Notes under the pieces: model-generated | What the model was told of the DNA's origin: nothing | Databases searched by the model: none | The model's input: only the letters and a program-made list of their open reading frames with translations | Part shown: positions 45,342 to 64,000 of the stretch, piece by piece | How the letters are laid out: every line of letters begins with the position of its first letter | Numbering within the stretch: position 1 is the first letter of the stretch | Program-made: the position numbers and the translations under genes | Source: an uncultured Lachnospiraceae bacterium | GTDB taxonomy: Bacteria > Bacillota > Clostridia > Lachnospirales > Lachnospiraceae | Reading direction: 5' to 3' | Length of the DNA: 64,000 nucleotides | Assembly: GCA_964650965.1 (NCBI GenBank) | Contig: CAZYYO010000004.1 | Coordinates: forward strand, 6,221 to 70,220

Positions 45342-46334
45342 TCATCTATAATTCTTCAGAATCTCCTGCAGATAGTCACGATACCCATCCACCACCTGCT
45401 TAGGTCCTGTAATTTGTATCTGGCTTCCCAAACCTGTAATCCATCCATAAAACTGATTACTCACCTCTACATTTACACGGACAAGAATATGCTCCGCTGT
45501 ATCCAGTGAACACCGCATCGTGACATCTGTACCAAAGCGGTCAATCAGTACTCCTGCCAGGCTTGTGCTGCATTCCAGGCTCACTATTTCCTCCTGACCC
45601 GCATACATGGAAAAGGTTTTCTTAGAATAAGAAGCTATGTCAATCTGGTTTCTCTCTCGTCCTCCGTCCCGTGGCTGGTCCAGTTCACTGGCATTTACCA
45701 TCTTATCTACTCGATAATGACGAATCGACTGGGCGTCACTGTCATATGCCACCAGGTAATAATTCTCATTGTCCCACAGCAGGAAGCTGGGGCTGACCTG
45801 ATACATGGCACCGTCCTTTCTCAATTCCCGCTTCTTCTCTGGTGTCCACTCTGTATACTGAAACTGCAGCCTGTGATTATGATCAATGCATCTATAAATA
45901 ACATCAATTGTATAGTAGATTCCCTCGTTTTCCGTTTTTGCCCGGTCTGCAACTACCACCTGTCGCTGAAGCTGTGTGCCTTCATATTTGCTGGACAGGG
46001 TCTCTAATTTCTTCACCAGTTCTCTGGACTTCTTCTCGGTGATAAACTTAGAAGCTGATACTGCGTCTACCAGAAGCTTTAGCTCAGGAAGTTCAAACTC
46101 CTTACTGGCCAGGTAATACCCTCCCTGGGCATCATCCGATTTCATAATATCCATCCCATACTGAATCAGTATCTCCATGTCAGAATAGATGCTCTTTCGT
46201 TCTGCCTTGATGCCATCCTCTGCCAGGCGTTCTATAATTTGCTTGGTTGTAAGGACATGATTCTCATCTGTTTCTCGATGCAGCATTTCCATGATACGAA
46301 GGATTTTCAATTTCTGATTTCCTGAATTGGCCAT
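45342..46334 (-). CDS. HTH plus WYL-domain transcriptional regulator
   Basis: The N-terminal wHTH (KLKILRIMEMLHRETDENHVLTTKQIIERL) and the central YQVSPSFLLWDNENYYLVAY region fit WYL-type regulators. Confidence 0.78.
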   Translation of the reverse strand: MANSGNQKLKILRIMEMLHRETDENHVLTTKQIIERLAEDGIKAERKSIYSDMEILIQYGMDIMKSDDAQGGYYLASKEFELPELKLLVDAVSASKFITEKKSRELVKKLETLSSKYEGTQLQRQVVVADRAKTENEGIYYTIDVIYRCIDHNHRLQFQYTEWTPEKKRELRKDGAMYQVSPSFLLWDNENYYLVAYDSDAQSIRHYRVDKMVNASELDQPRDGGRERNQIDIASYSKKTFSMYAGQEEIVSLECSTSLAGVLIDRFGTDVTMRCSLDTAEHILVRVNVEVSNQFYGWITGLGSQIQITGPKQVVDGYRDYLQEILKNYR

Positions 46335-49654: not shown

Positions 49655-49700
49655 AGCTTTTTTGAGGGAAGAAGATGGATTCCATCTTCGAAAAGGGGTA

Positions 49701-49770
49701 AGGTCTCCTGTAACTATGGTACCAGGATTTGGGGAAATCCTGGAAGAAACCATATTGCAGGGGACCTTTT
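49701..49770 (+). terminator. large intrinsic terminator after the DUF1667 gene
   Basis: AGGTCTCCTGTAACTATGGT...ACCATATTGCAGGGGACCT outer helix with an inner CCAGGATTT-gggg-AAATCCTGG, followed by TTTT. An extended -10 (TGATATAAT, 49772-49780) follows directly. Confidence 0.7.
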
Positions 49771-49855
49771 ATGATATAATGAGTGCAAGAAAGCCATGGT
49801 GAGCTTGCTCACCTTTGGCGACAACAAACGCGATTCTTTAAATGCTACGTAAATT

Positions 49856-50088
49856 GAGGATTTGTGCAGTTAATATTGCTTCTTCTTGGATACCAGAAAT
49901 AAGATATTCTAAGTATTCCTGGTTTCATTATGCATAGTGTGACGCAAGCGGCTTAAATTCGCCATCCATGGCTCAGTTAAGCCTTTCACAGACATCGTGT
50001 CTGTGAATTGCTGGTTGCTGAAAGGAATACTAAGAATATCTAATTCCTTATATAAGGCGAAGAATCAATACCAACTGCACAAATCCTC
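49856..50088 (+). repeat. long foldback element, copy 1 (74-nt conserved core 49941-50014)
   Basis: Basal arms GAGGATTTGTGCAGTT (49856-49871) / AACTGCACAAATCCTC (50073-50088). Proximal arms 49902-49920 / 50023-50041. The core matches 63830-63903 at 70 of 74 positions. Confidence 0.8.
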
Positions 50089-50131
50089 CCCACGTTAATT
50101 TATCACCCACCGTTCATAAGGAGTACACAAC

Positions 50132-50698
50132 ATGAAGCAAGAATTCCACAACGCATTAGAATGCTCCCCAATTATCGCTGCCATCAAGAGTCCAGAAGGC
50201 TTGCAACGCTGCCTGGACTGCGACAGTCAAATTATATTCATTCTATACGGAGATATCATCACCATCCCGGACATTGTCGAAAAAGTAAAATCCTCTGGGA
50301 AAATTGCCATGGTTCATATTGACTTAATCAATGGATTACACTCCAGAGAAATTGCAGTAGACTTTATCCACAAATACACCCAGGCAGACGGAATCATATC
50401 CACCAAAGCGCCTCTCATTCAACGAGCCAAGGAACTAGGACTATATACCGTCATGCGATTCTTCATGATTGATTCTATGGCCTATGCCAGTATTGAGAAG
50501 CAGTTAAAGAATACTCGTCCAGATGTAATAGAGATTCTTCCAGCATTAATGCCCAAGGTAATAGAGCGCATTAGTAAAATATCTAAATGTCCTGTGATTG
50601 CCGGAGGTCTGGTGAGCGAGAAGGAGGATGTAATGGCACTGTTAGAGGCAGGTGCCTCCTGCATATCCTCTACAAATGAAGATGTATGGTTCCTGTAA
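50132..50698 (+). CDS. glpP: glycerol-3-phosphate-responsive antiterminator
   Basis: 188 aa. SPIIAAIK...VHIDLINGL...ISTK...VIAGGL is the pattern of the GlpP (G3P_antiterm) family. Confidence 0.82.
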   Translation: MKQEFHNALECSPIIAAIKSPEGLQRCLDCDSQIIFILYGDIITIPDIVEKVKSSGKIAMVHIDLINGLHSREIAVDFIHKYTQADGIISTKAPLIQRAKELGLYTVMRFFMIDSMAYASIEKQLKNTRPDVIEILPALMPKVIERISKISKCPVIAGGLVSEKEDVMALLEAGASCISSTNEDVWFL

Positions 50699-63250: not shown

Positions 63251-63598
63251 TTATTTTTCCTCCTGTCTTACATCAATAAATCGGCCAACTACTTCGTTGG
63301 TCAAATGCCATTCTTCACATTTTAGCTTGTAATATTCTCTTCCTTCTTCTGTAATCCGATAATAGGTTCTGCGTTTTCCTGCAGATAAGTCTTCATCATA
63401 AAAGGATTGGATATAGCCGTTCTTCTCCATTCTGGTAAATGCAGAATACAGCGTTGTCTCCTTTATGACATATTTCTCGTCAGACATGGTCTTAATCTGT
63501 TTGGATATCTCATACCCGTAGGATGGACTGTCTAACAGCAGGAAAAGTATCATGGTGTCATTGTATCCGCGGATTACATCACTGCTGATACTGGTCAT
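63251..63598 (-). CDS. PadR-family transcriptional regulator
   Basis: ILFLLLDSPSYGYEISKQI...YSAFTRMEKNGYI...RRTYYRITEEG winged-helix pattern. Confidence 0.87.
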   Translation of the reverse strand: MTSISSDVIRGYNDTMILFLLLDSPSYGYEISKQIKTMSDEKYVIKETTLYSAFTRMEKNGYIQSFYDEDLSAGKRRTYYRITEEGREYYKLKCEEWHLTNEVVGRFIDVRQEEK

Positions 63599-63743
63599 AT
63601 CATTTACCTCTTTTCCGTGGGCATCGGTGTGATGCTTTTTTACTGGGTCAGACGTAGTATGTCTGTCGTTGGTACGTCTGTCGTAGTAAATGTATCATGT
63701 TTCGGGATTGGTGTCAAGGGGGAGTTTTTTGGGAGTGGACGGC

Positions 63744-63975
63744 AGCGGGCTGCACCGCCCCTGGTTTCCTTTGTTGGATTGGGAAATAAGGTATTCTAAG
63801 GATTCCTCGCGGTAGGTGGGGAAGGGGGAGACGCAAGCGGCTTAAATTCGCCATCCATGGCTCAGTTAAGCCTTTCGCAGACGTCCTGTCTGCGAATTGC
63901 TGGGAGGAGAGAGGAATTCTAAGAATACCTAATTTCCGGCATCAGGCAAAGAAAACCAGGGGTGGTGCAACTCGC
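63744..63975 (+). repeat. long foldback element, copy 2 (74-nt conserved core 63830-63903)
   Basis: Basal arms 63751-63773 / 63947-63969 (21 Watson-Crick pairs, 1 G-T, 1 mismatch). Proximal arms 63789-63808 / 63911-63930. Outer limits are approximate. Confidence 0.8.
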
Positions 63976-64000
63976 TTTCGTTTACTGCAAGAAATACTCG

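Follow-up and report, generated by a model that had tools for sequence, protein, structure and literature searches.

TwoAYGGAY elements of Lachnospiraceae are probably mobile foldback DNA repeats

Two TwoAYGGAY copies and the closest described systems

The TwoAYGGAY motif takes its name from two AYGGAY loops and was described from 216 examples in the human gut, Clostridia and gamma-proteobacteria, in a study which already recorded that its P1 helix is 'often very large' and took the motif for a probable RNA that is not cis-regulatory and not a riboswitch (Weinberg et al. 2010, Genome Biol 11:R31). According to a 2025 paper it is still 'relatively unexplored' and its function is unknown; the readable part of the TwoAYGGAY literature assigns it no function and does not describe mobility, and a literature search for miniature inverted-repeat transposable elements (MITEs) in Lachnospiraceae gave nothing relevant. 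In term counts of a bioRxiv preprint of September 2026 (10.64898/2026.09.22.753630), TwoAYGGAY appears 52 times and 'reverse transcriptase' 14 times, both also in the abstract, while the counts for recombinase, nuclease, integrase, CsrA and ribozyme are zero. The preprint may already assign TwoAYGGAY a function, which is a caveat on the verdict given here. We analyzed two copies of the element in a stretch of 64,000 nt from an uncultured Lachnospiraceae bacterium (assembly GCA_964650965.1, contig CAZYYO010000004.1, positions 6,221 to 70,220), referred to as the window, together with their relatives in other genomes. We conclude that TwoAYGGAY in Lachnospiraceae is probably a dispersed, non-autonomous, MITE-like mobile foldback DNA repeat.

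Several groups of bacterial sequences resemble the family in part. Correia/CREE of Neisseria, ERIC/IRU of enterobacteria, and RUP and BOX of Streptococcus pneumoniae are likewise short, non-coding, multi-copy and intergenic. Bacterial MITEs and palindromic repeats share with it long hairpin-forming arms, target duplications, insertion polymorphism and promoter parts at their ends. TwoAYGGAY differs from them in that it is conserved at its centre and covaries across genera, its outer arms vary greatly but remain complementary, no parent insertion sequence was found, and adjacent copies almost always stand head-to-head. CsrB/RsmZ-type sponges and CsrA-bound leaders offer a possible analogy, since they carry A-N-GGA hairpin loops as well, with two sites at dimer spacing. 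In contrast to CsrB/RsmZ, TwoAYGGAY has only two sites, one of them often degenerate, it is dispersed as a mobile repeat, and no defined transcription unit or strand preference was seen. The family resembles invertons in that its ~190-nt centre, which lies between inverted repeats, occurs in both orientations at one orthologous site; unlike in invertons, the inverted repeats of TwoAYGGAY differ from copy to copy, a conserved promoter and an adjacent invertase were not found, and a single inversion was seen, between genomes and not within a population.

In a whole-window Rfam scan at the gathering threshold, TwoAYGGAY (RF01731) accounted for both of the window's matches, each on the minus strand. 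With the gathering score at 43, copy 1 (49888..50055) reached 129 bits (E 4e-23) and covered model positions 1-168 of 168 without truncation, and copy 2 (63775..63944) scored 112.8 bits (gathering score 43, E 2e-19), again over the full model 1-168. The family identity of both loci is near certain, and both elements are already known, as any Rfam scan would label them TwoAYGGAY. A first-pass annotation of the window, made from the letters alone, had called the element unclassified, had matched its core to no familiar RNA and had named an Rfam match as the finding that would overturn this; because the core matches an existing Rfam family, the claim fails. Its plus-strand reading also conflicts with the scan, in which the RF01731 model sits on the minus strand at both loci.

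The anatomy given in the same annotation held up much better. Both loci were found with every quoted sequence and coordinate as given, and the description of a structured element that truly recurs, with a long imperfect hairpin, a variable bulge of ~20 nt and a conserved mismatch, was confirmed. The three-way-junction apex which it had drawn agrees with the consensus structure of the RF01731 covariance model and is supported by covariation in 76 relatives. The two 74-nt cores (49941-50014 and 63830-63903) have exactly four differences, at 49988, 49994, 49997 and 50004, two of which make up a compensatory change from A-T to G-C in the CACAGAC/GTCTGTG helix.

The conserved apex of copy 1 lies on the minus strand at 49941..50014, and its helices 4-7 are 85-100% paired in the 76 relatives. 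Read on this strand, the closing helix joins C-A-GCAA with TTGC-G, the first hairpin is CACAGACA-CGA-TGTCTGTG and the second is GGCTTAA...GCCA-TGGA-TGGC...TTAAGCC. The loop of hairpin 2 is AUGGAU in both copies. That of hairpin 1 departs from AYGGAY: in copy 1 it is ACGAU, one G short, and copy 2 has AGGAC. The same variants are common among relatives that pass the RF01731 model. With their two apical stem-loops, very long P1 and origin in gut Clostridia, the window copies share the traits of the described motif, and nothing excludes their membership, loop 1 being off-consensus in both.

Below the apex of copy 1, the proximal arm with the conserved mismatch (49902..49920) pairs with its partner at 50023..50041, and the basal arms at 49856-49871 and 50073-50088 were confirmed by a sequence check. 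The ends of copy 1 read GAGGATTTGTGCAG / CTGCACAAATCCTC. The whole foldback spans 49856..50088, with minimum-energy pairing extending to about 49847-50095 (233-249 nt, 67 enclosing pairs). The foldback of copy 2 occupies 63704..64000 and is cut by the window end, since it pairs right up to base 64000 and its right end lies beyond; its left terminus, GGGATTGGTGTCAAGGGGG, resembles the family terminal repeat. Region 49856-50088 folds at -96.4 kcal/mol on the plus strand (z -10.7) and at -105.7 kcal/mol on the minus strand (z -13.2), neither value being reached by any of 200 shuffles. The stronger fold is on the minus strand for copy 1 and on the plus strand for copy 2.

Anatomy and covariation of the family

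An exact-pattern scan of one genome per species returned at least 116 loci, and the family figures rest on the matches listed. Among these about 97 are true members, nearly all from Lachnospiraceae, with Roseburia, Lachnospira, Agathobacter, Hespellia, Dorea and Eubacterium represented, and a few are from Acutalibacteraceae. Matches in GC-rich soil genomes were judged to be chance and were not counted as members.

Folding each member with 330-nt flanks revealed that the 168-nt Rfam model describes only the inner part of the foldback. The complete foldback has a median length of 278 nt (range 230-410 nt) with 55-127 enclosing pairs, and thus exceeds the model by 60-240 nt. At the tip is the conserved apex, a three-way junction bearing two stem-loops with YGGA-type loops. 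Variable unpaired linkers (5', about 10 nt; 3', about 21 nt) connect it to the conserved proximal arms, and a small internal loop separates these from the outer arms. Both proximal arms read TTAGAnnnTCTTA on the Rfam strand and each is quasi-palindromic, so that they face each other with two conserved U·U mismatches, which correspond to the A-A mismatch reported earlier on the plus strand. Complementarity of the outer arms is almost perfect, although they diverge strongly between copies even in one genome; one group of 26 members has them in common. The 76 aligned members show little or no variation in loop 2, the junction CAGCAA...TTGCGTC and the AAG linker, some of these columns being fixed by the search pattern. 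The 5' and 3' linkers of one element match each other, which amounts to extra pairing. A guide-like role of the linkers was considered and dropped: the 3' linker matched the flanks at 6.32 versus 5.92 in controls (p 0.014) with no fixed register, and we put the difference down to base composition.

Covariation was measured on an alignment of 76 distinct members with 49 pairs. Standard pairs filled 94.3% of the pair cells, compared with 71% after column shuffling and about 42% with slid partners. Double-sided changes occurred in 39 of the 49 pairs, and the covariation score was 0.60 versus 0.18. These pairing and covariation figures indicate that the fold is real and maintained.

Where selection acts on the RNA of one strand, G·U is tolerated much more readily than A·C. 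In the family, one-sided changes were rare and symmetric: no excess of G·U was detected in the long arms, with 162 G·U against 176 A·C mismatches (p 0.48), and the core alignment gave about 46 against 43. Sense and antisense folding energies did not differ either (-76.1 versus -75.5 kcal/mol, p 0.25, 86 members). Given the symmetry of G·U and A·C, covariation cannot tell which strand, if any, acts as RNA. The same covariation is equally expected of a DNA palindrome whose symmetry is maintained through recombination or template switching of one arm with the other.

Mobility, inversion and the conserved apex

The family shows several traits expected of MITEs: a length of 230-410 nt, no coding capacity, terminal inverted repeats and duplications of about 8 bp in at least one subfamily, many copies and presence/absence polymorphism. 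Six assemblies each have at least 5-7 loci holding at least 7-10 copies, and the housekeeping genes around the copies are unrelated to one another. Contigs frequently end at the elements: for eleven members the end of the locus is no more than 110 nt away, and several of these are true contig ends. In the group of 26 members the terminal inverted repeat reads (G)ATTCGGGTGTCAAAAGG and is separated from the core by about 110 nt on the 5' side and 120 nt on the 3' side, a spacing that is fixed in about 20 members; no terminal repeat away from a core was found in the first 116 loci. Copy 2 of the window carries a diverged version of this subfamily repeat.

For detection of target duplications, we compared the flanking 8-mers of 15 elements bounded by both terminal repeats (303-373 bp), with mismatched pairs in 300 trials as controls. 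On average 5.6 of 8 positions were identical, compared with 4.28 in the controls (sd, standard deviation, 0.20; maximum 4.93), a difference of roughly 6 sd. The 8-mers were identical at 8/8 positions in two elements (L031 and L039) and at 7/8 in four more. Copy 1 of the window is flanked on the plus strand by ACGTAAATT (49847..49855) and ACGTTAATT (50092..50100), which agree at 8/9 positions, three extra C separating the end of the foldback from the right-hand repeat; this is probably a target-site duplication. The earlier statement that there is no target-site duplication is thus contradicted by the duplications of about 8 bp in one subfamily and by the 9-bp repeat (8/9) at copy 1.

Sites without the element were found at orthologous positions. 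For two GlpP orthologues with 86% and 76% identity, the DUF1667-glpP gene order is as in the window; the spacers measure 197 and about 186 nt, respectively, and gave no TwoAYGGAY signal, compared with a 477-nt spacer in the window. The only other assembly found with an identical GlpP breaks inside copy 1.

If the family is a MITE-like repeat, it would have spread by cut-and-paste or copy-and-paste transposition, with a transposase supplied in trans. What keeps the arms complementary would then be recombination or template switching from one arm to the other, or else selection acting on source copies, and not selection on one RNA strand.

We searched the neighbourhood of the elements for a partner gene. 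The 148 open reading frames (ORFs) nearest to the elements fell into 209 Pfam families with at most five members per family, ABC_tran being the largest, and no transposase, recombinase, reverse transcriptase or nuclease was among the 25 commonest neighbour families (each with at least two members). Neither the window nor the loci scanned contained a reverse transcriptase motif. A conserved partner gene was rejected, as no enrichment appeared in 525 ORFs clustered all-against-all, in the Pfam assignments of the 148 nearest ORFs or in the reverse transcriptase motif scan. The first-pass annotation was right that no mobility or Cas gene adjoins the element.

These searches bear on a different route of spread, in which a reverse transcriptase encoded at another place in the genome has the element as its RNA partner or its template, either as a retroelement-like repeat moving via an RNA intermediate or as a trans-acting retron-like system. 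TwoAYGGAY and 'reverse transcriptase' co-occur in the abstract of the preprint, where the term counts do not establish a link between them, and target duplications would also fit target-primed reverse transcription. On the other side, no reverse transcriptase signature occurred in the window or the scanned loci, RVT_1 was outside the 25 commonest families of the 148 neighbouring ORFs, and the subfamily terminal inverted repeat together with the fairly fixed duplication length points to a DDE-type transposase. We regard this route as quite improbable.

An inversion was observed at one orthologous site in two Lachnospiraceae genomes (L012:5911-6822 and L017:2270-3182), whose flanks are about 91-95% identical after reverse-complementing one of them. 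One orientation aligns the flanks together with the terminal repeats and with an asymmetric part of the outer arms; the centre of ~190 nt, comprising the internal loops, proximal arms and apex, aligns only when inverted, and then almost perfectly. The centre has been inverted by exchange within the outer arms, and the difference is not a second insertion. Orientation was kept in three other clear orthologous comparisons (two elements shared by L015 and L065, and one by L055 and L068).

Such a flip between inverted arms, with flanks and outer arms unchanged, is what a programmed inverton would produce, if a trans-acting recombinase turned the conserved centre and so changed the expression of the neighbouring genes. 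The quasi-palindromic proximal arms, TTAGAnnnTCTTA, are also reminiscent of recombinase-dimer sites. However, the crossover took place not at the conserved proximal sites but in the variable outer arms, the three other comparisons showed no inversion, and no conserved promoter was seen in the centre. No recombinase was among the 25 commonest neighbour families, and the nearest candidate is an anecdotal one on a Roseburia plasmid, near a lone terminal repeat. We hold a programmed inversion switch to be very unlikely; it and a glpP-specific leader, discussed with the surroundings of copy 1, are the less likely readings.

The lone repeat itself is an exact copy of the terminal repeat, GGATTCGGGTGTCAAAAG, at L122:4003-4020 (plasmid NZ_CP135163.1 of Roseburia sp. 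831b, around 131512-131529). It edges an unannotated stretch of 1.25 kb, followed by a helix-turn-helix (HTH) gene, about 1.1 kb away, and a tyrosine recombinase gene. Within 45 kb of this repeat there was no TwoAYGGAY core and no partner repeat.

A number of observations weigh against a MITE-like repeat. The comparison with empty sites is one between species, in which the intergenic DNA is too diverged to give a base-exact insertion point. In about 41 of the 76 members the outer arms have no detectable match to any other member, and duplications were not scored for these because their ends are ill-defined; over all members the duplication signal is only about 2 sd above the control. Searches of the loci, the window and the plasmid collection yielded no autonomous element and no transposase bearing this terminal repeat. 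Core pairs within 900 nt of each other are head-to-head ('- then +') in 15 of 17 cases, unlike simple random insertion (L013, L014, L019, L026, L036, L045, L058, L070, L088, L090, L098, L100, L101, L110 and L112), the exceptions being one convergent (L024) and one tandem pair (L113). The outer arms of paired members are unrelated and the orientation of the neighbouring genes varies; flanking-gene orientation was considered as the cause of the pairs and does not explain them. Finally, it is the centre and not the ends that is most conserved, the reverse of an ordinary MITE, and conservation across genera extends to the loops, the junction strands and the two mismatches. Such unpaired parts would not be preserved by templated correction of a palindrome, indicating that something selects on the apex.

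In one further reading, the elements would be mobile, invertible foldback cassettes, and a trans-acting factor, either a CsrA-type regulator or the reverse transcriptase named in the 2026 preprint, would dock on the apex with its two CANGGANG-type loops on a three-way junction. We consider this combination unlikely. If it were true, a gut Lachnospiraceae genome would hold protein-binding or template modules by the dozen, scattered over the genome and inserting into leaders, that of glpP among them.

A related proposal, which is compatible with mobility, takes the element to be chiefly a functional RNA that docks a protein, the copies serving as CsrA-type binding or sponge modules dispersed in many transcripts. 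The apical C-A-N-G-G-A-N-G loops, about 30 nt apart, resemble (A/U)CANGGANG(U/A), the hairpin site preferred by the dimeric regulator CsrA/RsmE. The Rfam consensus loops are CAuGGAUG and GCCaUGGAuGGC, the hairpin stems covary, and the near-invariance of loop 2, the junction and the AAG linker, partly fixed by the search pattern as it is, would suit a binding site. In addition, one metagenome contig (L242, minus strand, about 234-800) carries CATGGATG...GCCATGGATGGC about 300 nt 5' of a CsrA-like ORF (LVITRREGEEVVIG...VAVHRKEV); the 64-kb window has no csrA-like ORF. Loop 2 always fits CANGGANG, although the search pattern fixes it, and loop 1 fits in some members only. Against a docking RNA, loop 1 often lacks GGA, its sequence being ACGAU in the largest subfamily as well as in copy 1. 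The Rfam strand has no excess of G·U over A·C, the orientation of the element relative to co-directional flanking genes (34 antisense, 20 sense) shows no significant bias, a conserved promoter or terminator was not seen, and the centre can be inverted at a fixed site. The term counts of the preprint never include CsrA. As the primary nature of the element, a protein-docking RNA has a low probability in our assessment.

To the published description the present analysis adds the longer foldback, the hallmarks of mobile DNA, the strandless covariation, the invertible centre and the head-to-head neighbours. Taken together, these family features advise caution against taking the Rfam covariation as proof of RNA function.

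Surroundings of the two copies and matches elsewhere

Copy 1 is located between a glpA-like operon (DAO, Pyr_redox_2, DUF1667) and glpP (50132..50698, plus strand), which encodes a glycerol-3-phosphate responsive antiterminator (PF04309, E 1.4e-68), and its Rfam strand is antisense to both. The two window elements are likely best annotated as an insertion into the glpP leader and another insertion upstream of padR. In the case of copy 1, the insertion of the MITE-like repeat would have taken place downstream of the glpA-like operon's terminator and ahead of the glpP ribosome-binding site. After the DUF1667 gene, a long G+C-rich hairpin followed by TTTT lies at 49686-49769; it was missed by a simple terminator scan, is probably the operon terminator named in the first-pass annotation, and has an equivalent in the relatives L118 and L121. 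Further upstream, a regulator with WYL and WCX domains is encoded on the minus strand at 45342-46334, divergent from the glycerol-3-phosphate dehydrogenase-like operon.

The first-pass annotation had proposed that copy 1 is a new plus-strand, cis-regulatory leader RNA of glpP. The element does lie between an extended -10-like TGATATAAT, whose position at 49772..49780 on the plus strand was confirmed, and the start of glpP, and relatives have TGCTATAAT about 25 nt 5' of the glpP ribosome-binding site. Judged by this layout, plus-strand read-through from 49772-49780 across copy 1 into glpP is plausible, and the two-hexamer consensus promoter scan did not call TGATATAAT. Should TGATATAAT serve as the promoter of glpP, the leader would contain the TwoAYGGAY RNA in reverse complement, so any glpP leader starting there would bear a very stable hairpin, of about -96 kcal/mol, antisense to the Rfam RNA. 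Against a dedicated leader RNA, the family is a catalogued one that is modelled on the opposite strand, its neighbours span 209 gene families, none of them glp-specific, and the element is absent from the spacers of the glpP orthologues. The motif was also scored as not cis-regulatory (Weinberg et al. 2010). A glpP-specific device already fails on these grounds, and we give a new regulatory leader RNA hardly any credence.

Copy 2 is found 5' of padR (63598..63251) and shares its orientation. An outward promoter-like site toward padR at 63689..63717 (minus strand) consists of a -35 TTGACA in the terminal repeat, a 17-nt spacer and TG-TACATT, and was identified by consensus match only. It is a possible hybrid promoter for padR, and copy 2, as an inserted MITE-like repeat, would thereby offer the gene an outward -35.

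Beyond the genomes of the scan, a phage or plasmid origin was examined and rejected, since blastn of copy 1 against phage and plasmid collections gave zero matches; a scan of viral contigs gave one match. In a metagenome scan for canonical double AYGGAY loops, the matches examined were unrelated GC-rich soil hairpin repeats and chance matches, and none of the 18 metagenome loci tested against Rfam contained TwoAYGGAY. The GC-rich soil repeat has the form 'CACTGGCGCGCG..CGAACGCCCGGC-CATGGATG-GCCGGGCCGG..GCGCCATGGATGGC' and was found in L140, L154, L171, L197 and about 40 others. It comprises two hairpins with CAUGGAUG-type loops, is sometimes arranged in tandem with a period of about 108 nt, and its representatives among the 18 loci tested matched no Rfam family at the gathering threshold. 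Arrays of short hairpins with CCATGGATGG loops beside 'AATGCAGGAGCAATTGCC' were seen at seven other metagenome loci (L138, L148, L157, L182, L184, L228 and L235). These arrays resemble multi-GGA sponge RNAs, and in L148 a 6S RNA lies about 1 kb away.

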